Source: Nitrosopumilus sp.
Lineage (GTDB): Archaea > Thermoproteota > Nitrososphaeria > Nitrososphaerales > Nitrosopumilaceae
Length of the DNA stretch: 64,000 nucleotides
Assembly: GCA_965249555.1 (NCBI GenBank)
Contig: OZ252243.1
Coordinates: 1,504,001 to 1,568,000 of the forward strand
Reading direction: 5' to 3'
The position numbers were made by a program, and so were the translations under genes. The number at the start of each line of letters is the position of its first letter. Position 1 is the stretch's first letter. The notes beneath the pieces are model-generated. The model worked only from the letters and a program-made list of their open reading frames with translations. It was not told the origin of the DNA and did not search any database. Positions 1-64,000 of the stretch are shown one piece after another.

Positions 1-3000
1 CTAGCCTGAATATATTATCAATTGCTGCAAGGGATGGAGCAGTAGAGCAACAGCTAACCAAGGACAAATCAGCGTTGTCTTCTTCAATTAATGTCGCATT
101 TATCTTTGCTAATCCAGATGATATGGACGGACCAGAGATAAAATTAATGCCATTACTATAAAGATCTTCAGCTTCAGCTAAAATCACATCAGGATTTTTT
201 TGGGAATCCCTAACGTCTATGGATAGGCGCCAGTCGGCATTGTTTTCTATCAAATATCCATTAAAGTTCGATACTGCTACAAAGGTAGCATATTTCCTGT
301 GGTCCCCTGCATCATCCTGCCTGCCAGTTTCTGGAACTATGGCACCAATGCCAAATACGGTTTTATCAGTTCTCACCCAGCCGTCGGCATCAGATATGCT
401 AGTTGTATGATAAGCGTTAGGTGCATCCAAATCCCCTACAGCATTTAGGGCGTATTGCTTCCCTAATGCACCATCATAAAAAGTGCTAGTATCATCCAAG
501 TCACTTTGTATTGATGTGACATCATCGTCGTGTTCAGTTACCAGGTCGCCAAAAAGTTTCACACTATCATGTACAGAGTTGTGGTATGAATGGTACCTTA
601 TCCCAAAGGGCTGTAATGCGTCTTGCAGTTCCAGTGCAAGAATGTTTGGCTCTATGCCAAATATTACAGAAGTAAAGCTTACCTTCCTAGCAAATTCTAA
701 TGCCTTACTATTCTCCAATATGGTAGGGTCATATCCAATTACTCCAGGTGTATACCATTTTAGATTACCTAAGACACTATCAGCTTCAATATTATCAGCC
801 AAACTAATAAAATGAGAGCTTGCTCCAATAAGCAATACTGCTATTTCAGCATCAGTAGAAGGATCTGCTCCAGTAGTTAGTGTAGTGTAGAATCCTTCCA
901 TACTTGCCACAGCTGCTGAATAATCTTGACCTGTTACTGATAATGGCTGCGCGTTAGTATGTTCAGCAAATAATTCACGATAACCTTCACCCCATTCATT
1001 GTCCAGATAGAAAATTAAAAGTTCAGTCTTTCCATCAGATTCCAAAAGATCTTCCAACACTTGTTTTTCATTTGATATGTCTGGCACCAGCCTGTATATG
1101 CTATCTTTTTCGGCAAGGGATGTGGCAGCAGAGGTGGGAGAGATCAAGATGGCATCGTTACCATCAAAGAATGGCTGTGCTTGTGTAACGGGGGTGCTAA
1201 AAGTTAGTCCTGAAAAATATTTTATCTTTTCATCAATAACGTATTGAGAGGCAAAAACGAAACCGTCATGGAGTACAAACCATGCACGTCTTGTCTGCTC
1301 AAATCCAGTGTAAGGGTCATCAATGGTGTAACTTACCCAGGTACCACCAGTCTGTAAATCAGACAAAATATCTGCAGGGGTCCTGTCAGGTACACCTACA
1401 GATACGGCACTCTTACTAACTAAAGAAGGATATTTGGCATTTGCAACTATCTGATAAGTAGTACCATCAATCACAAATGGGTAAAAGAAATCCTCAGCAG
1501 GATCAAATGATTTATTAATTTCATCAAACTTTTTATCCGTAGAACTAGCATCATATGTGTCAATTGCTTTATTGACTATCGCCTCTAAGATGGGCTGGTG
1601 ACCTGCATCCCCAATAGGTGGGTTGTACCCTGCACCGATAATATGTCCAGAAGGCTCGTGTAATACAAGCAAAGAGCGCTTGATGCCATCACTGCCAGTT
1701 ACAGTATTAGCAAAAGTATACTGCCACCACAACTCTGGAGCACCACTATCAAGTATATCATATGCAGAAGCAAAGTCCCTGTCAGAATTACCTACCAAGT
1801 CATTAGCATTTTGGCCAACTAGATCAGCACTAGTACCATGAGCTATAATCTTACCAGTTTTATCTATAACAAATGGATAAGGGTCTGTAGTATAACCCTC
1901 TATTGAAAATGTTCCAGCAAGAGCATCATAATTGGCTGTGGCTGCATCTATAGTATCCTTTAATGAAGAATAGTAAAAGTCATCGTACGTGCCATCGTAT
2001 AGTGCATTTAATGCAGGTAGTGCACCATTACCAGTGTTTATAGTGTGCAGTTGTATGTCAACATCATCAAAGTTTTGGGCAGCTAGTGCCATAGTTACTG
2101 CAAAGTCATCCTCATAAAAGAAATGATTGTCCAAATCAAGCAATACGCCCACATCAATTATAGTCGAATCATCCACGTACGTCAAAATAAATGTACCATC
2201 AGGAAAATATGTGCCAAGTCGTTCCCATACGCTGTCTTCTATGCCAAATATTCCAAAGTTAGCCTCTTCTAGGTCTCCAAACTCATCTAGTGTGACATCA
2301 CCTAATGCGCCATTATCATTTTCATTTATTGCCTTCTCTAAATCCACTTCTCCATAAATATGACTTGCACCACCAGCTGTCTCTATTGCCAGTCCTATTG
2401 CCCATATGCTGTCATATGCAGAATACACATACTTTAATGGAATATCATCTGGAAATGCATTATCCAATGCTGTTTTTAATGATCTAAATCTTTCAGTGTC
2501 TGATTCAAACTCAAATGTGCATGACCTAAAGTTTGTATCAGATAGAAATTCTGCCATATCTGGGTCGTCTACAAGCTCTTGTTTTTGTGCATCGATATCA
2601 GAGCCTACCCATTGTACCAGCCTGAGTGCAGGATATTTCATAGCTTCTGCTATAAAGTCAGGCGAATGAAATCCGACATAGAGAACAAAAATTCTATCAG
2701 CACCATTTGATCTGATTTGTTCTAGTACTATATCATTTAGATCAGAGACAAGATCTGTAAACTGACCATCACATGTAGGATTGCCATCATCTAGATTAGC
2801 ACAATCTTTGTAGGATAATATGCCGTTACTAGTGTAAATTGCATCAGGATTAGTCTGTTCTTGATATATTGCAGTACCGCCTAGTCCCTCAAATGTCTTA
2901 ACTGTACTATTAGCTAGTCCGCGGCCAAAGGGATCATTGACATAAACAGGGATTGCAATTGTTTTGCCTGAATTATACACTAGATTTGCAATGACTGGCC

Positions 3001-3466
3001 CATGCTTTGAATCACTTGGAACCAAACGATAAATGCTATCAATTACAGCAAGTTCGGGCGCAGTAGAAGAATAGCTGACTAAAGACAATTCAATACTATT
3101 GGCATCAATGTATGTCTTTATAGCATCAACAGAATCGGAACGTGCGGGTCCGGAGATAAATTGTATGTCATTATCTATGAAGGATTTAACTTCTTCTAAT
3201 GATTTATCAGCATCAGAAGCCGTATCCCTAATTTCTAAAACAAGATGCCAGTCTGCACCTTTATCAGACAGATATGCGTTAAAGTCCTCAAGTGCCTTTT
3301 CTATTGCAAGTTTTGCATGCACGCCAATGGATTTAGATGCACCAGTCTCTGGAACCAGAGCCCCAATCTTTACCTCTGTGAGGGGTTCCTGTGCAACAGC
3401 TGGATGTATAAATGCCACACAAATTAGAGCCAAAACAGAAAATAGAAGAAATATGTTGTTATGCAA
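1..3466 (-). CDS. Giant secreted multi-domain protein: signal peptide, three LivK/type-I periplasmic-binding (Venus flytrap) domains and two Cache-like domains; partial, runs off left edge (>1150 aa)
   Basis: Manual translation from TTG at 3466: MHNNIFLLFSVLALICVAFIHPAVAQEPLTEVKIGALVPETG...FISGPARS...YSSTAPELAVIDSIYRLVPSD. The same frame at the window edge reads FISGPSISSGL...SCCSTAPSLAAIDNIFRL. No stop seen, which explains its absence from the ORF track. Confidence 0.85.
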   Translation of the reverse strand, partial: MHNNIFLLFSVLALICVAFIHPAVAQEPLTEVKIGALVPETGASKSIGVHAKLAIEKALEDFNAYLSDKGADWHLVLEIRDTASDADKSLEEVKSFIDNDIQFISGPARSDSVDAIKTYIDANSIELSLVSYSSTAPELAVIDSIYRLVPSDSKHGPVIANLVYNSGKTIAIPVYVNDPFGRGLANSTVKTFEGLGGTAIYQEQTNPDAIYTSNGILSYKDCANLDDGNPTCDGQFTDLVSDLNDIVLEQIRSNGADRIFVLYVGFHSPDFIAEAMKYPALRLVQWVGSDIDAQKQELVDDPDMAEFLSDTNFRSCTFEFESDTERFRSLKTALDNAFPDDIPLKYVYSAYDSIWAIGLAIETAGGASHIYGEVDLEKAINENDNGALGDVTLDEFGDLEEANFGIFGIEDSVWERLGTYFPDGTFILTYVDDSTIIDVGVLLDLDNHFFYEDDFAVTMALAAQNFDDVDIQLHTINTGNGALPALNALYDGTYDDFYYSSLKDTIDAATANYDALAGTFSIEGYTTDPYPFVIDKTGKIIAHGTSADLVGQNANDLVGNSDRDFASAYDILDSGAPELWWQYTFANTVTGSDGIKRSLLVLHEPSGHIIGAGYNPPIGDAGHQPILEAIVNKAIDTYDASSTDKKFDEINKSFDPAEDFFYPFVIDGTTYQIVANAKYPSLVSKSAVSVGVPDRTPADILSDLQTGGTWVSYTIDDPYTGFEQTRRAWFVLHDGFVFASQYVIDEKIKYFSGLTFSTPVTQAQPFFDGNDAILISPTSAATSLAEKDSIYRLVPDISNEKQVLEDLLESDGKTELLIFYLDNEWGEGYRELFAEHTNAQPLSVTGQDYSAAVASMEGFYTTLTTGADPSTDAEIAVLLIGASSHFISLADNIEADSVLGNLKWYTPGVIGYDPTILENSKALEFARKVSFTSVIFGIEPNILALELQDALQPFGIRYHSYHNSVHDSVKLFGDLVTEHDDDVTSIQSDLDDTSTFYDGALGKQYALNAVGDLDAPNAYHTTSISDADGWVRTDKTVFGIGAIVPETGRQDDAGDHRKYATFVAVSNFNGYLIENNADWRLSIDVRDSQKNPDVILAEAEDLYSNGINFISGPSISSGLAKINATLIEEDNADLSLVSCCSTAPSLAAIDNIFRL

Positions 3467-3759: not shown

Positions 3760-4191
3760 CTACATCAGCCCAACAACAAAAAATGGTGCAGACCAAGAGA
3801 AGCTAATAATGACGCCAATAATCATGATCAATTGTGTTTCAAGATCGTTTGGGATATCGTGGCCGTTTGTAAAAACCCCATAAAACGTTGACAGTAAGCT
3901 ATGTATGCCAAAAAAGAGACAAGTCATGCTGAGAATAAAATAAGTGTTTTTCTTGTGTGCAGGATACCTTTTTCTTATTACTAGCACTAGTCCTGCAATG
4001 ATTCCTATAACTGTAAGTGTAATCTGAAAAATCACAGTACGCAAGTTCCAGTCAATATCGCATGTGTCTGTTTGCTCGTTGTACGCATGTGTTAATTGGC
4101 AATCCAATGAAAATCTAGATTCAGCACTGAAACTATCTTGAGGGATAGGCATCATCAAGGCAATTAGGAGGAAAAAGTAAAAAGTTCTCAT
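3760..4191 (-). CDS. Hypothetical membrane protein (signal peptide, small Cys-paired segment, about 3 TM helices), possibly C-terminally truncated
   Basis: ORF track; hydrophobic stretches; ends within a hydrophobic segment. Confidence 0.55.
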   Translation of the reverse strand: MRTFYFFLLIALMMPIPQDSFSAESRFSLDCQLTHAYNEQTDTCDIDWNLRTVIFQITLTVIGIIAGLVLVIRKRYPAHKKNTYFILSMTCLFFGIHSLLSTFYGVFTNGHDIPNDLETQLIMIIGVIISFSWSAPFFVVGLM

Positions 4192-35985: not shown

Positions 35986-36076
35986 CGTCAGGGGTGGGAT
36001 TTGAACCCACAAAACCGAGGTTATCGATCAAGAGATTTTCAATCTCACGCAATAGACCAAACTATGCGACCCTGAC
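35986..36076 (-). tRNA. Serine-type (long variable arm, G73) tRNA gene with a GAA anticodon; degenerate tRNA-Ser or atypical tRNA
   Basis: GTCAGGG/CCCTGAC acceptor stem, intact T arm GTGGG-TTCAAAT-CCCAC, anticodon arm TGAGA-TTGAAAA-TCTCT, variable arm GATCGA-TAACC-TCGGTT. Confidence 0.8.
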
Positions 36077-37902: not shown

Positions 37903-38003
37903 GCAGAGGTATCGAAGCCCGGTCAACCGAGAGGGACTCAAGATCCACAAAATAGGAAATCCCTTCTCTTAGGAGTTCGTGGGTTCGAATCCCACCCTCT
38001 GCA
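37903..38003 (+). tRNA. tRNA-Leu(CAA) with 16-nt intron at 37/38 (37943-37958)
   Basis: GCAGAGG/CCTCTGC acceptor stem; AGGGA-CT-CAA-G[intron]A-TCCCT; long variable arm. Confidence 0.92.
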
Positions 38004-58516: not shown

Positions 58517-58643
58517 TGGTCCCGTGGGGCGGAATTGAACCACCGACAACCCGGTTTCTGTATGCCTGATATGCTGCTATTTGGTCAGCCATCTAAAGCC
58601 AACAACTACAGCCGGAAGCTCTACCAGGCTGAGCTACCACGGG
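58517..58643 (-). tRNA. tRNA-Tyr(GTA) with 50-nt intron (58556-58605) and encoded CCA
   Basis: CCCGTGG/CCACGGG acceptor stem (C1-G72, archaeal Tyr); TCCGG-CT-GTA-G[intron]A-CCGGG. Confidence 0.92.
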
Positions 58644-59816: not shown

Positions 59817-60028
59817 TAATAACGCATTTTATCATACAGTCAACTCATCCTAAAACTGATCATTTTGTAAATATTTGATGATAATATGGATCTAACAACA
59901 CAAACATGTCTTCATGATTCATAAAGAAATGTCAGATGCTCAATGATACATATACTAGAACAATTTCAAAGTCAATTCATGGGGTGCAGGGAAATCTGTG
60001 TACAATATAAGGCAAAAAAACCGTATGT

Positions 60029-60395
60029 ATCCATGTGAATTGTTTTTATACATTTCCCACTTTTTTGCATCCCAAGGCATAGCCTTCGCTATGGAATGCT
60101 TTCAAACAAAAGATGACGGACATGTATCCATACGAGGTCTGTTCCTCAATGCTATCTTCATCCCTTTGTCAGGATTATTCGCAGTTATTACCCGAGGCTT
60201 GTCCCTCAACATCTAACACGCGACTTGCAGTCCTAACTGTAATTCTGTACAAATTCTCTCCTCTCTTTTAGCATCCAGTAAATCACTCGCAGGATCTTTG
60301 ATGATGTGGCAACTGCGGCCTTTGATGAACCTCTCTTCTTTTTAATGCGATTGTAAAATTTTGTAATGTCACTGTTCTTGGCATGTATTGTATGA
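60029..60395 (-). mobile_element. IS110-family remnant (copy 3): last ~55 codons of transposase plus full 204-bp downstream non-coding end
   Basis: HTIHAKNSDITKFYNRIKKKRGSSKAAVATSSKILRVIYWMLKERREFVQNYS, nearly identical to copy 2; shared terminus AATTCACATGGAT. Confidence 0.85.
60040..60232 (-). ncRNA. Candidate IS110/IS1111 bridge (seek) RNA
   Basis: Two stem / internal-loop / GAGG..CCTC hairpin modules plus a 3' hairpin, folded by eye downstream of the transposase stop. Confidence 0.5.
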
Positions 60396-60878
60396 TTCCA
60401 TTCAACTGTTGTATGCAATTAAGATATTTTCAGGTTTGTGTTATTAATGATTTTGACATATTATACATATGGAACCACTATCAGTAATCATGAAACAGCG
60501 TGATGATACTTTTTGCTGGAACAATGTTTGCTTTAATTGTTCTACACTGTACATCAGGGAGATGAAGATACAACAGGGATTGTAATTTGTTTGATCTGTT
60601 AAAGTATGTGTTAGGGGCAGAATACCCAATCACCTAATTCAAAATGCCTCAAAGTAAAGATTCTGAACAGACACAAATTGTATAGTTTTGGTGATCTGTA
60701 TGCAGAAAAGTTCATGCATAAAACTCATAGACTCATACCTCCATATCACAATACAATGACTGAACTCTTTTCAAAGCTTTTATAAATTATAAATAATTCT
60801 GTTGCAATATGAACAAAGTATTATTCTCTGCGTTAATGGGTGGAGTGGGCTTGGCCTCATTTGTCATATAACTCACCC

Positions 60879-63800
60879 TTGCAGGCAATTATCAGGTACC
60901 CATTTCTCTGCCTCGTATTTGCGGCACTATTTGCCATATCACTGGTCCTTGGGAGTGCCGAGGCCACCCAAGTCACCATCACACCGCTAACTTATGTAGA
61001 TGGTCAGACGGCAATTGAGCCAGGCTCTTTTAACATTATAGTGGATGACAGCCTTCGTCTAACTACGACCTTTGTTCCGCGGCAAGCCGGTGATTGGAGG
61101 ATTACGTCTGATGGTTTTGATCCTCTTGATGGCAGTGTTACTCAATCTGAGGTAAATAATAATGCACGTTTAGGGGATTTTAACAGACAACTGAGTATTG
61201 GTTTTGAGGACGATATCGTTCTTTTCTTCAAACCCAGTGGGGCTAGTGAATTTGCAAAAGTTGCAAGTGGAAACGTGGGGATTGTTCCTGATCTACCTGT
61301 ACTCAGGGTGGTAGGTGTCACTCCGACGTCTATAACGCTTGAATGGGATGATGTGGATGGTGCCCGTGGATACCATTTATTCATAAATGCAGTCGCACAT
61401 ATTACCACTGATCCATCAATCACTTTTGATGAATTAGATCCTGGAACAGAGTACTCTATTGCTGCCATAACAACAACAATTGGTAGTAACGCTATTAGTG
61501 CCAGATCTGCTCCGTTGGATGTAACCACATTGGCTGTAACTCCCTTGTCTGCAACAATAACTTATGCAGATGACCAGACGGCACTTGCCGAAAACATTTT
61601 TGCCGTTATACTGCCTTCCCCGGGAAATGCGGTAAATGTGTGGATTTCACCGCTAGAGAAGGGCACACTTAGATTTGAATCTAGTAATATTGGGAAGAAT
61701 GTCCCGGTTGCTTCAGGTGTGGATCAGACTGTTGCAAGGCCGCTGCCTCATGGTGATGATAATATTGTCATTTCATCAAGCGGTACAGAAGTTGCAAGGA
61801 TATCTATAACGACTGAGCTGGATCCTGATGAACCAGTTTATGCAGAAGAGCAGACGGCAATCCGGGAAGGCTCTTTACGTTATGAGCCGGTTGTAGATGG
61901 TAGCAGCATAAGTGTGAACTTTGTGCCAACAGACGCCGGCAACTTTGTATTTAGATATGGTGACTCTACTTCCACCTCTATTATTAATAAGTTGGGTGCA
62001 GAAGTAACAGTCGGCCTCCCCGTAGGTCATGATTATGATGATGACGTTATCATTGAATTCGGCGGCGTAGAAGCTGTAAGGATGCATGTAACGACCCCGT
62101 CTGAAGACGGTGTATCAATCCAAGCAGGCTCGTTTGTGGTTGTTGATACGATAAATGCAGACGCATTACGCGTAGAATTTGTACCGTTAAAGGAAGGCAC
62201 ATTTACGGTTACGGCAGGTGATACAAGTGAGACAGTTGACGTCTCAGCTGGGGATGTATCGGAATCAACACCAAAAGGGACTGAAATAACAGTCGGGTAT
62301 GAATTTGATGATAATGTCATCCTTTCATTTGGAGGCAAGGATGCTGCAAGGATACATGTGACGACCGGACCCACACCACTCGTACCTTCAGCGCCATCGC
62401 TTAGAATTACAGGTACCACTCATGACACTGTAACGCTCTCATGGGATGCAGTACATCGTGCCGACACCTACACCCTGACCCGAACCCTTGGAAGCAACCC
62501 TGCTGTAACGGTGCTATCTGGAATCGCTGACCTGACTTTTACTGATAAGAACCTGGCTGCCGAAACCGATTACACGTATTCCCTTACGGCGATAAATTCT
62601 GTCGGGCCAAGCGAACCTTCCGAGGATACTGTAACCACTGATGCTGCCCCAACTCCACCCGATACCCCGACACTTGTAGCGGGAGTAACCACCCATAATA
62701 CCGTCAGCCTCTCATGGGACGAACCGACCGGGGCCGACAGCTACATACTGACCAGGACTGCCGGCACGGTGATAATTGAGATACCGGTAACTGGGGGAAC
62801 GCACACTGACGATGCTTTGAAATCTGGAGTACAATACACCTATTCCATAAGGGCAGTGTCTGCAATTGGAGCCAGTCCAGATTCTAATGATGTCATCGTA
62901 ACCACGATTCCAGTACCCATAACACCTACCACGCCAACTTACACGGACGGCCAGACTGCAATCGATGAATCCTTTGGCATTATCCTGCTTGGCGATGGCA
63001 CGGCAGGGGTATTCTTTGATGCCACCGATGACGGAAAATATCATGTCGGGTGGGGAGCAGAGACTAGTACCCCTATTACTTACGAGGATGGCTACAGTGC
63101 ATATGTCGTGATTCCTATTGGCGACTATGCCGGCGTTGTCATCTTGTTCTTTGACGATAACGAGGTTGCAAGGCAAGTGGTACCTGCCGTGATAAGCCCG
63201 ATCAAAGACGGTACCCTGTCAGTCACTGATGATGCAGACGGGATCATAACCGTATCACTTACGCCGGCATTTGCCGGCACGTTTTCTGTCAGCACCAATT
63301 CCCTAGAGTCTGAAAAAATTCCCGGCGTACCTGATACCCAGATAGATATTACCCTGGATGTCGGACATGGCTTTGCCGAGGATGTCCTTGTCTCATTCAA
63401 TAATATTATAGTTGCAGGGATATTTGTAACGACCGTCCCTGATGCCCCGGCGCTTGTTCTGGGGCCCGTCACCAGCACCAGCATCACCCTCTCATGGAAT
63501 TCGGTGGATAATGCCGATAGATACACCCTGACCAGAACCGCTGATGGCACTGATGTAATAATAGTATCAGGCAACGTATTGACTTTCACTGATGAGGGTC
63601 TTGCTGCCGGAACCAATTACGTGTATGCCATTACGGCGACAACTCCTGAGGGCAGAACAGGCGCTATATCTGCAGAGCTTGCAGTTGATATTGGCTCTGC
63701 TGCAGAATCCTTTGGCGTCATAGTGGACGGTGATGGTGCATCCGTATCCTTTACACCGCTAGTACCTGGCGATTTCACGATTGGATACGGCGATGATTCA

Positions 63801-64000
63801 GCCAATGATGTTACCATCTCTGTCGCGACTGGCAAGTTGTCTGCAAAACTAACCACGATAAAGGTCGGCTATAATTTTAACGGCCCGGTCACCCTCTCCC
63901 TTGATAATGATATTATTGGCAGGATATTGATAGTCACCGAGCCTCCTCCTACCACGCTTGATGCAACGGCAGTCACCGATACGAGCATCACCCTTGCATG
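60879..64000 (+). CDS. Giant secreted fibronectin type III repeat protein with interspersed unrecognised beta-rich repeats; partial, runs off right edge (>1040 aa)
   Basis: TTG start MQAIIRYPFLCLVFAALFAISLVLGSAEA; FN3 motifs (TSITLEWD...LDPGTEY; TVTLSWD...LAAETDYTY; SITLSWN...LAAGTNYVY); frame stays open to 64000; visibly GC-richer than the core. Confidence 0.88.
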   Translation, partial: MQAIIRYPFLCLVFAALFAISLVLGSAEATQVTITPLTYVDGQTAIEPGSFNIIVDDSLRLTTTFVPRQAGDWRITSDGFDPLDGSVTQSEVNNNARLGDFNRQLSIGFEDDIVLFFKPSGASEFAKVASGNVGIVPDLPVLRVVGVTPTSITLEWDDVDGARGYHLFINAVAHITTDPSITFDELDPGTEYSIAAITTTIGSNAISARSAPLDVTTLAVTPLSATITYADDQTALAENIFAVILPSPGNAVNVWISPLEKGTLRFESSNIGKNVPVASGVDQTVARPLPHGDDNIVISSSGTEVARISITTELDPDEPVYAEEQTAIREGSLRYEPVVDGSSISVNFVPTDAGNFVFRYGDSTSTSIINKLGAEVTVGLPVGHDYDDDVIIEFGGVEAVRMHVTTPSEDGVSIQAGSFVVVDTINADALRVEFVPLKEGTFTVTAGDTSETVDVSAGDVSESTPKGTEITVGYEFDDNVILSFGGKDAARIHVTTGPTPLVPSAPSLRITGTTHDTVTLSWDAVHRADTYTLTRTLGSNPAVTVLSGIADLTFTDKNLAAETDYTYSLTAINSVGPSEPSEDTVTTDAAPTPPDTPTLVAGVTTHNTVSLSWDEPTGADSYILTRTAGTVIIEIPVTGGTHTDDALKSGVQYTYSIRAVSAIGASPDSNDVIVTTIPVPITPTTPTYTDGQTAIDESFGIILLGDGTAGVFFDATDDGKYHVGWGAETSTPITYEDGYSAYVVIPIGDYAGVVILFFDDNEVARQVVPAVISPIKDGTLSVTDDADGIITVSLTPAFAGTFSVSTNSLESEKIPGVPDTQIDITLDVGHGFAEDVLVSFNNIIVAGIFVTTVPDAPALVLGPVTSTSITLSWNSVDNADRYTLTRTADGTDVIIVSGNVLTFTDEGLAAGTNYVYAITATTPEGRTGAISAELAVDIGSAAESFGVIVDGDGASVSFTPLVPGDFTIGYGDDSANDVTISVATGKLSAKLTTIKVGYNFNGPVTLSLDNDIIGRILIVTEPPPTTLDATAVTDTSITLA

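Follow-up and report, generated by a model that had tools for sequence, protein, structure and literature searches.

Two Cache-type units predicted within a split flytrap domain of a Nitrosopumilus multidomain protein

Introduction

No extracellular modules for ligand binding are commoner in prokaryotes than the Cache and periplasmic-binding (PBP) folds, which are normally studied as receptor inputs or as partners of transporters. A gene at the left edge of the stretch of Nitrosopumilus sp. DNA analysed here (64,000 nucleotides, in the following: the window) appears to combine both folds, one within the other. This raises the questions whether an insertion of Cache units into a flytrap domain is real, whether the protein is a sensor, any output domain of which would lie outside the window, as considered in a preliminary description of the sequence, and which role such a protein may have.

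Results and Discussion

Gene and complete protein

The gene is located on the minus strand. It starts at window position 3466 and ends 1151 bases beyond the left edge (G000:C1:1502850); the rest of the gene was taken from the genome, and the full open reading frame comprises 1538 residues (Table 1). All peptides quoted in the preliminary description were recovered in this one open minus-strand frame: IIDVGVLLDLD at 2129-2161, ALNALY at 1997-2014, YPFVIDKTGKIIAHG at 1835-1879, WWQYTF...LVLH at 1658-1729, IIGAGY at 1625-1642, YPFVIDGTTYQIVANA at 1436-1483 and WVSYTI...FASQY at 1241-1339. The strings with which the flytrap was said to resume are present as well (1196-1225 and 1079-1147), but lie just past the end that had been given for the arrangement.

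Table 1. Features of the gene in the window (positions are those of the window)
Feature	Position	Strand	Residues	Basis or remark
In-window part of gene	1..3466	-	1-1155 of 1538
Putative signal peptide	3392..3466	-	1-25	TTG start, hydrophobic core, AVA/QEP; read by eye
PBP1, complete type-I binding domain	2171..3382	-	29-432	ANF_receptor, Peripla_BP_6, phmmer to 4n0q
PBP2, N-terminal piece	1985..2170	-	433-494	Strand 1, helix 1, strand 2, helix 2
Cache unit 1, sCache_2 type	1619..1984	-	495-616	Pfam score, model, pocket residues
Cache unit 2, sCache_2-like	1226..1618	-	617-747	BLASTP to unit 1, fold
PBP2, C-terminal piece, strand 3 to domain end	359..1225	-	748-1036	Peripla_BP_6, superposition
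PBP3, start	2..358	-	1037-1155 of 1037-1420	Remainder and tail left of the window

The domains follow each other in the order signal peptide, three flytraps of the LivJ/ANF type (PBP1, the split PBP2 and PBP3) and a tail of 118 residues. The protein is presumably secreted and very acidic (pI about 4.1), and its small C-terminal domain is closed by a Cys pair. According to Kyte-Doolittle analysis residues 1-19 form the sole hydrophobic segment, and no membrane segment follows the putative signal peptide in the complete protein. The orthologues possess an N-terminus of the same kind. Over the whole protein the Pfam families ANF_receptor (PF01094) and Peripla_BP_6 (PF13458) score 146.1 and 122.5 bits, respectively (over cut-off). 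PBP1 matches ANF_receptor (51-410, E 1.8e-42) and Peripla_BP_6, too, and its phmmer match to the Leu/Ile/Val-binding protein 4n0q (E 1.1e-9) aligns over both lobes. NCBIfam gave a partial match to a LivJ subfamily only (70.1 bits, cut-off 477 bits).

Receptors typically use Cache and PBP domains as their input modules, and a transmembrane sensor with its output domain beyond the window would be in line with this. The fetched remainder of the gene argues against it: it holds the third PBP and the tail (residues 1415/1416-1538), for which neither a Pfam match nor a usable Atlas match was obtained, and Pfam and NCBIfam scans of the complete protein revealed no family of the MCP, kinase or cyclase kind. 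At the gene itself there is no evidence for a downstream exon-like continuation or trans-splicing. An artefact, i.e. a chimeric assembly or fused genes, is opposed by a frame open across 1538 codons in a genome that is a single contig (99.97% completeness), and by the recurrence of the nested layout in a paralogue, on the chromosomes of two Nitrosopumilus MAGs and among proteins from metagenomes. The probability of either, transmembrane sensor or artefact, is close to nil. Of the earlier wording "sensor or scavenger", the signal-transducing sensor thus finds no support, because there is no output domain and no hydrophobic segment after residues 1-19, whereas a scavenger or binding protein is compatible with the complete sequence.

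The split flytrap PBP2

PBP2 is split after helix 2 by about 250 residues (495-747), and the fold picks up at strand 3. The insertion site thus belongs to lobe I, where a loop connects helix 2 with strand 3. The C-terminal piece matches positions 68-319 of the 343 positions of Peripla_BP_6 (E 7e-4, 19.8 bits, cut-off 31.7), and the first 67 positions, which it lacks, are the share expected of the piece before the insert. The N-terminal piece scanned alone (residues 433-500) showed no Pfam match. It is homologous to residues 724-790 of P0128, an uninterrupted relative with the same type of PBP2, in which these residues continue directly into the remaining domain, with a linker of 5 residues at the insert site. 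Because the C-terminal piece scores beneath the cut-off and the N-terminal piece has no match, the assignment of PBP2 rests on the fold and on P0128. When the three PBP units were first aligned with MAFFT, the N-terminal piece fell into a gap, and the boundary is not based on this alignment.

Shallow alignments (13 and 21 rows) underlie the predicted structures discussed here. In the model of residues 430-1036 (pLDDT 85.9, pTM 0.81) PBP2 is predicted to adopt a complete two-lobed alpha/beta type-I fold, the N-terminal piece contributing E6-14, H23-34, E40-48 and H53-62 (DSSP). The model superimposes on the leucine-binding protein 4n0q_B with Z 30.8 and an rmsd of 2.9 (320 of 345 residues aligned; model 6..604, chain 23..367) and on 3td9 with Z 30.5 (323 of 350 residues). 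Since the C-terminal piece has 289 residues only, the N-terminal piece must take part in the superposition with 4n0q_B. Both flanking halves thus model as one type-I PBP, and the domain-in-domain layout of the preliminary description is borne out by the profile break at 68, the P0128 linker and the superposition. Neither of the two outcomes named beforehand as refuting it, inserted units without a Cache fold in the model and flanking halves that do not reassemble, was observed. We therefore consider it highly probable that two tandem sCache_2-type units reside within PBP2 and that its halves still form one whole flytrap. The PBP and Cache folds are both well known; their nesting, a Cache inside a flytrap, is unusual. 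Full-text searches of the literature outside subscription journals yielded no paper on these archaeal proteins or on a binding protein with a Cache domain nested inside it.

The inserted Cache units

A relationship between the two inserted units had been noticed before and is well above chance level (BLASTP: 86 residues, 35% identity, E 1e-9). A match to Cache domains had been called established. Unit 1 taken alone reaches 25.8 bits with sCache_2 (PF17200, E 1.2e-5, gathering cut-off 25); in the scan of the whole protein the score is 20.2 bits, beneath the cut-off. Unit 2 scanned alone has no Pfam match, and the word is too strong for these scores, because unit 2 can be counted as a probable Cache by homology to unit 1 and by its predicted fold only. 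Unit 2 exhibits phmmer matches to array proteins, e.g. P0009, in which sCache_2 scores 562.9 bits in 13 stretches.

The insert model (pLDDT 92.6) consists of a helix (H2-21), five strands and short helices, a pattern repeated in the second unit and corresponding to a predicted sCache_2 fold. As expected for Cache folds, it superimposes on 4k08_A (Z 11.5, rmsd 3.1, 125 of 144 residues, model 121..251), 4exo_A (Z 11.2) and 3ub6_A (Z 10.2), which PMC5062169 names as structurally related to PscD, a carboxylate sensor of the sCache type. A search of PDB sequences with the single sequence of the insert yielded chance-level matches only (cytochrome c-550, E 0.17, and a sugar kinase), so that a profile search was needed; its top two matches were PscD (5g4y, E 0.0011) and 4k08 (E 0.014).

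In PscD the carboxylate is contacted by Y90, H103, Y143 and K156 (PMC5062169). Unit 1 has the equivalents of all four residues (Y530, H543, Y583 and K596; the first 15 residues align ungapped), and these are kept in 11, 10, 11 and 10 of 13 nested sequences, respectively. Three of the four are kept in unit 2 (Y662, N676, Y713, R726) if Arg is counted for Lys. Its His position is occupied by Asn, and His is present there in only 3 of 13 relatives. The aromatic residues sandwiching the ligand differ from those of PscD, the Trp being replaced by Phe/Phe in unit 1 and by Phe/Ile in unit 2.

A dCache domain also has two PAS-like modules in a row, and this reading of the insert was rejected. In dCache one stalk helix serves the distal and the proximal module, whereas each unit of the insert has its own helix (H2-21; H125-146 and H149-157). 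The dCache chains 6mni_B, 3lif_B and 6pzj_A cover one unit only (108-115 residues, model 123..253), and the Pfam dCache_2 profile matches unit 1 with its last third only (positions 191-291 of 298).

Relatives and evolution

The superfamily is patchy and was seen only in the archaeal family of the source organism itself, the Nitrosopumilaceae. Its members mix PBP with Cache_2 modules, which stand in tandem, are nested or form arrays of up to 16. Besides the uninterrupted relative, the insert may comprise one, two or three units, a single Cache unit being present at the PBP2 insertion site in at least 5 further proteins; the order PBP then Cache occurs, too (e.g. P0101, P0134). Alignment A1 comprises the query and 12 relatives that were chosen because of their nested layout and are 28-76% identical to it; the insert occupies the same site in the query and in all 12 relatives. 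When genome contigs were scanned, the single protein found no relative and the smaller alignment A3 found two loci.

Compared with the orthologues, dN/dS is 0.13-0.55 in every domain, i.e. the protein is under purifying selection. Between the two paralogues of the source genome the values are 0.3-2.1 per domain, which could reflect relaxed constraint as well as diversification. Among the related proteins, 155 were mapped, and 83 of these consist of Cache units only (1-16 per protein, at least two in 82 cases). Nearly all are without a membrane segment beyond the N-terminal signal; 2 C-terminal and 4 internal hydrophobic segments were detected.

Several of these observations would also suit a structural or adhesive surface protein, in which the modules serve as rigid blocks or make contact with a host, particles or the S-layer and the pockets are vestigial. 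Relatives with 8-16 successive Cache units fit such a protein as well as they fit binding, the number of pure arrays and the scarcity of membrane segments agree with it, and some relatives contain FN3, Ig-like, NHL or SdrD-B modules. The two paralogues diverge strongly in their amino acids. Furthermore, sponge-associated Thaumarchaeota are reported to be enriched in Cache domains, for which surface recognition was suggested (PMC7848895). However, a full set of carboxylate contacts in unit 1, conserved in most nested relatives, is unexpected for vestigial pockets. The low orthologue dN/dS in every domain and the alignment of PBP1 to amino-acid-binding proteins across both lobes likewise argue against a structural or adhesive role, which we regard as unlikely.

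Genomic neighbourhood

We compared 18 kb around the gene, its paralogue and two orthologues. None of these four loci contains ABC permease or ATPase genes, and no receptor, kinase or chemotaxis gene adjoins any of the four genes. The conserved neighbour in this comparison is a binding-type protein (SBP_bac_3), which is missing beside the copy in the window.

The protein might be the substrate-binding component of an ABC importer of the LivHMGF type, as its flytraps are closest to Leu/Ile/Val-binding proteins and the genome possesses one LivH/LivM-type (BPD_transp_2) permease pair. This pair is located at 585.9-587.7 kb, about 900 kb from the gene, and has its own binding protein of 422 residues directly upstream (583.3-584.3 kb). 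Given this distance, the lack of transporter genes at the compared loci and a size and form unusual for a transporter partner (three flytraps, two Cache units and a tail), a role as importer component appears very improbable.

Another explanation is a soluble co-receptor that docks on a separately encoded membrane receptor or transporter, the binding protein and its Cache partner being fused here. Models for this are LuxP with LuxQ and AibA/AibB with the sCache_2 receptor TlpB, and non-covalent pairs of binding protein and Cache sensor are described as an established signalling mode in a review (PMC8050422). The solved structure 5ERE, a single chain made up of a type-I PBP together with PAS-like/Cache modules, points in the same direction. 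Against this stand the lack of receptor, kinase and chemotaxis genes next to the four genes and the fact that the neighbour conserved elsewhere is another binding-type protein. A co-receptor is thus a rather doubtful explanation.

Comparison with known systems

5ERE is Dret_0059 of Desulfohalobium retbaense, by title a signal-transduction protein (Wu et al. 2017, Protein Sci 26:857; cited in PMC8694187). It superimposes on the PBP2 model with Z 29.1 (308 residues, chain 32..353), and its Cache part on the insert with Z 9.0 (chain 353..593). In 5ERE the Cache modules come after a complete PBP, whereas in the present protein they are inside lobe I (profile position ~67/68). Moreover, the present protein has no membrane or output part and contains two further flytraps.

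PscD (5G4Y), Adeh_3718 (4K08), the Vibrio structure 4EXO and TlpB (3UB6) have the fold of the inserted units in common, an N-terminal helix with a PAS-like sheet. The sequence similarity of the insert to these sensors is weak but top-ranked, and unit 1 shares the carboxylate contacts of PscD. In contrast to the sCache_2 chemoreceptors, the units are nested and in tandem and have neither flanking membrane helices nor coupling to an MCP or kinase; instead of lying between two receptor membrane helices with a cytoplasmic output, they are flanked by the halves of a PBP.

Binding proteins of the LivJ/LivK type and ANF/class-C flytraps belong to the same family by Pfam, sequence and fold. The present protein differs from both in having three copies per chain, one of them cut by 250 residues, and no adjacent transporter. 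For the insertion itself, there are parallels in the isoleucine indicator NeIle (9jti, 8z0g), which carries a foreign module in a loop of an intact periplasmic-binding fold, and in the ionotropic glutamate receptors, whose channel interrupts a type-II binding fold. Among the Foldseek chains listed, 9jti is the only one spanning nearly the whole 607-residue model (585 columns, rmsd 15.5), and because of this rmsd the likeness is one of layout only. In both parallels the insert is the output (fluorophore or channel), whereas here it is predicted to be a module of the ligand-binding type.

Proposed role

Our main reading joins the nested architecture with a role of the protein in soluble capture of ligands at multiple sites; taken together, we assign it a probability of roughly 0.6. 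For the capture role taken alone the chances appear about even. Receptors hold a Cache domain between two membrane helices, and its two ends should therefore be on the same side, so that a loop can take up such a domain while the host fold stays intact. The loop that follows helix 2 and leads to strand 3 would lie at the N-terminal edge of the sheet and face away from the cleft. As the insertion would thus be remote from the cleft, the flytrap and the Cache pockets should act as separate binding sites.

Unit 1 would most likely bind a small carboxylate or a carboxyl-bearing compound, because it keeps the Tyr-His-Tyr-Lys set of C2/C3-carboxylate sensors. For unit 2, binding of carboxylates with altered specificity may apply, and the flytraps seem, judged from sequence and models, to resemble branched-chain amino-acid binders most. 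The protein may capture and retain ligands in soluble form in the space under the S-layer and perhaps pass them to transporters or receptors encoded elsewhere. Capture rather than signal transduction of its own is proposed because there is neither a membrane anchor nor an output domain.

A more far-reaching version takes the Cache-in-flytrap module as a natural allosteric device, comparable to biosensors engineered by domain insertion, and, at the same time, the chains of sCache_2 units without output as an extracellular capture layer for organic acids. Small carboxylates in the Cache pockets would then modulate how the host flytrap closes or how tightly it binds, or the flytrap would act on the Cache units, and chains of up to 16 sCache_2 units might retain 2-oxo acids of the pyruvate kind. 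For the removal of hydrogen peroxide, ammonia-oxidising archaea of the sea depend on such acids. We consider this combined version a long shot.

Significance

The protein and its relatives depart from the usual contexts of the Cache and PBP folds in three respects: they use both without any output domain, they combine them freely, in tandem, nested and in arrays of up to 16 units, and they belong to a lineage, Nitrosopumilus and its kin, with little classical signalling machinery. The nested form represents a natural splice of one ligand-binding domain into another, with both folds kept. Since the superfamily contains an uninterrupted relative and forms with one, two and three units, it would be a useful model for the evolution of domain insertions, and the nested module may serve as a scaffold for the design of sensors. 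The use of organic compounds by ammonia-oxidising archaea is debated; if the pockets do bind carboxylates and amino acids, the protein would point to a capture of organic solutes by these organisms.

Gene and domain layout

The gene under study is one long minus-strand open frame, which starts with TTG at position 3466 of the window and crosses its left edge. Completed from the fetched left flank, it encodes a protein of 1538 residues (P0002); the genome comprises 2.23 Mb in one contig, and the G+C content of the window is about 34%. The peptide strings quoted in the preliminary description are real and all lie in this one frame, but two of them are located just left of the end coordinate assigned to them there. 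Pfam searches with the whole protein gave ANF_receptor (E 1.8e-42, 3 stretches) and Peripla_BP_6 (E 4.2e-35, 4 stretches), as well as sCache_2 and dCache_2 matches under their cut-offs. The residue boundaries of the parts, with three type-I Venus-flytrap domains (PBP1-3), are our own mapping (Table). P0002 is very acidic (pI 4.14; Asp plus Glu 15.9%). Its C-terminal domain of 118 residues has a cysteine at its start (C1423) and at its end (C1537) and gave no Pfam and no Atlas match; it is kept in the orthologues and is also present in the related proteins P0038, P0040 and P0070.

Table. Parts of P0002 and features of the window, of neighbouring loci and of related sequences
Feature	Location	Remark
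Signal-like N-terminus	P0002 1-25	
PBP1	P0002 29-432	
PBP2, N-terminal piece	P0002 433-494	
Cache unit 1	P0002 495-616	
Cache unit 2	P0002 617-747	
PBP2, C-terminal piece	P0002 748-1036	
PBP3	P0002 1037-1420	
Tail	P0002 1421-1538	left of window
Upstream gene	window 3760-4191 (-)	directly upstream, same strand; 143 residues, hydrophobic stretches, weak DUF matches below cut-offs
tRNA match	window 35986-36076 (-)	91 bases
tRNA match	window 37903-38003 (+)	101 bases
tRNA match	window 58520-58643 (-)	124 bases
Right end of window	window 60001-64000	G+C up from about 0.33 to 0.41-0.50
DDE transposase gene	L004:7114-8130 (-)	locus around the window's copy; about 5.9 kb to the left of the window and 4.7 kb past the stop of the gene
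Paralogue	L005:7683-12854 (-)	G000:C1:719683-724854
SBP_bac_3 neighbour of paralogue	L005:5732-7696 (-)	
SBP_bac_3 neighbour of orthologue	L012:11332-13401 (+)	
SBP_bac_3 neighbour of orthologue	L013:11404-12036 (+)	
One Cache plus PBP in giant frames	G052:C1:1692067-1693353, 2082948-2084252, 776323-777588	
One Cache plus PBP in giant frame	G041:C1:1715025-1716263	
Repeat in related protein	P0006 526-980	part of PBP2 N-terminal piece plus Cache unit 1

Insertion of the Cache pair into PBP2

Three agreeing lines of evidence confirm that the Cache pair is an insertion within PBP2, and the nesting proposed from the sequence is thus borne out. Scanned alone, the C-terminal piece of PBP2 matched Peripla_BP_6 at profile positions 68-319 of 343 (19.8 bits, below the cut-off). 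The missing first 67 positions correspond to strand 1, helix 1, strand 2 and helix 2, and in the model these four elements lie in the N-terminal piece; this piece alone gave no Pfam match. Furthermore, P0128, a protein from the search of representatives, has a PBP2 of the same kind without Cache units, its pieces (724-790 and 795-1078) having only five residues between them. For residues 430-1036, AlphaFold (pLDDT 85.9, pTM 0.81; 13-row alignment) predicts that both pieces form one flytrap. Over its entire chain, the leucine-binding protein 4n0q_B can be superposed on this model (Z 30.8, rmsd 2.9, 320 of 345 residues, model positions 6..604), and these 320 aligned residues exceed the 289 that the C-terminal piece holds. 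With Foldseek alone the alignment extended over no more than about 306-313 columns, approximately the length of that piece.

At rank 2 of the Foldseek search with the same model was the engineered isoleucine indicator 9jti (also 8z0g; 585 columns, rmsd 15.5). Here a foreign domain has been placed within a Leu/Ile/Val-binding protein, giving the natural nested layout an artificial counterpart.

Identity and ligand pockets of the inserted units

Unit 1 alone reached 25.8 bits with sCache_2 (cut-off 25), and its assignment as a Cache domain is sound. Unit 2 alone had no Pfam match; here the assignment, which we consider good, comes from fold and homology. The two units share 35% identity over 86 residues (E 1e-9), and P0009, one of the relatives whose units match unit 2, scores 562.9 bits with sCache_2 in 13 stretches. 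In the model of residues 495-747 (pLDDT 92.6; 21-row alignment) the same arrangement appears twice: a long helix, then a sheet of five strands with short helices. When this model was searched against 48,161 PDB representatives, sCache-type chemoreceptor sensors ranked top, with moderate Z values obtained from a predicted model: 4k08_A (Z 11.5, rmsd 3.1, 125 of 144 residues), 4exo_A (Z 11.2) and 3ub6_A (Z 10.2). Cytoplasmic PAS domains followed closely (Z 8-10), as the superfold would predict. For a profile built from seven two-unit sequences, the two best matches among 177,635 PDB sequences were PscD (5g4y, E 0.0011) and 4k08 (E 0.014). In PMC5062169, 4k08, 4exo and 3ub6 are named as structural kin of PscD. 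A reading of the insert as one dCache domain was rejected: dCache chains cover just one of the two units, each of which has a helix of its own, so the pair represents two single Cache units. The observation of two Cache-like units nested in a Venus-flytrap domain is confirmed.

In the carboxylate sensor PscD, the ligand's carboxyl group is held by Tyr90, His103, Tyr143 and Lys156, between Trp92 and Trp145 (PMC5062169). According to the HMMER alignment, these six positions correspond to Y530, H543, Y583, K596, F532 and F585 in unit 1 and to Y662, N676, Y713, R726, F664 and I715 in unit 2. Among 13 nested sequences (the query and 12 relatives picked for this layout), unit 1 retains the Tyr, His, Tyr and Lys in 11, 10, 11 and 10, respectively. 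For unit 2 the Tyr positions are kept in 13/13 and 12/13 and a basic residue in 12/13, with His in only 3/13. Judging from the contact residues, a small carboxylate is the putative ligand of unit 1.

Relatives and distribution

The few close homologues form five clusters, all with the insert. Among 1.84 billion representatives searched, 743 proteins matched at E up to 0.001; the best 150 of them were mapped together with P0002-P0005 and P0008. Of these 155 proteins, 15 have the nested layout with two units (three in P0006), 83 are pure arrays of 1-16 Cache units, 44 contain flytraps only and 13 are mixed. At least five mixed proteins (P0039, P0055, P0070, P0079, P0109) carry one Cache unit at the same PBP2 site; in other mixed proteins, Cache units lie ahead of or behind a complete flytrap. 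Hydrophobic segments among the 155 are N-terminal in 109, C-terminal in 2 and internal in 4. The repeat in P0006, which yields its three units, looks like an internal tandem duplication crossing a domain boundary. P0009, P0010, P0018 and others are secreted and consist almost wholly of sCache_2 units, without membrane segment or output domain; the largest array has 16 units in 2099 residues by our mapping (13 stretches by Pfam). The nested form with one Cache unit was also found within open frames of 3034-5609 residues, which would encode giant extracellular proteins.

Of 151 genomes in the family, 26 (the source genome among them) contain the Cache pair; it is present in 7 of 27 genera, one genus having 19-30 matches per genome. 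Matches span the whole nested unit in 7 of 301 genomes of the class, again including the source, and cover unit 2 plus the C-terminal piece in 2 more; all are confined to the window's own family, and at E up to 1e-20 nothing matched in 120 genomes drawn from 14 other families. Among genomic relatives with titled records, the closest two are chromosomes of Nitrosopumilus sp. MAGs.

Paralogue and genomic context

About 780 kb away, the genome carries a paralogue whose 1723-residue product is 82% identical. An additional stretch of about 180 residues at its N-terminus contains an FN3-like match. Rough dN/dS values per domain, from our own Nei-Gojobori script, were 0.13-0.55 and 0.17-0.36 against the orthologues in L012 and L013, and 0.31-2.14 against the paralogue, the latter at low dS (0.02-0.29) and with small counts. 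Amino-acid divergence between the two copies is high relative to synonymous change. The paralogue values are consistent with a recent duplication in which the protein changed fast or constraint was relaxed.

Relatives of the DDE transposase (81% and 64% identity) are also encoded close to the orthologues in L012 and L013, and the element may be linked to duplication or movement of the big gene. Beside the paralogue and both orthologues, the downstream neighbour is conserved and overlaps the big gene's stop (654-689 residues; type-II binding fold by SBP_bac_3, 208 residues over 117 profile positions); it is absent beside the window's copy. Elsewhere in the window, the tRNA matches are longer than a plain tRNA, suggesting intron-bearing archaeal tRNA genes; combined with the G+C content of about 34%, they indicate archaeal DNA. 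At the G+C-richer right end of the window no rRNA was detected by Rfam at gathering scores.

The idea of an output domain beyond the window is not supported: the rest of the protein consists of the third flytrap and the tail, and residues 1-19 of the protein are its sole hydrophobic stretch. No receptor or transporter genes flank the window's gene, and the only LivH/LivM-type permease pair of the genome lies about 900 kb off, with its own binding protein of 422 residues. Full-text searches of literature outside subscription journals gave no description of the nested Cache-in-flytrap layout. The closest solved combination is Dret_0059 (5ERE), whose PBP and Cache-like modules stand in tandem, whereas they are nested here. 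P0002 is best read as a secreted protein with several putative ligand sites, built from known modules.
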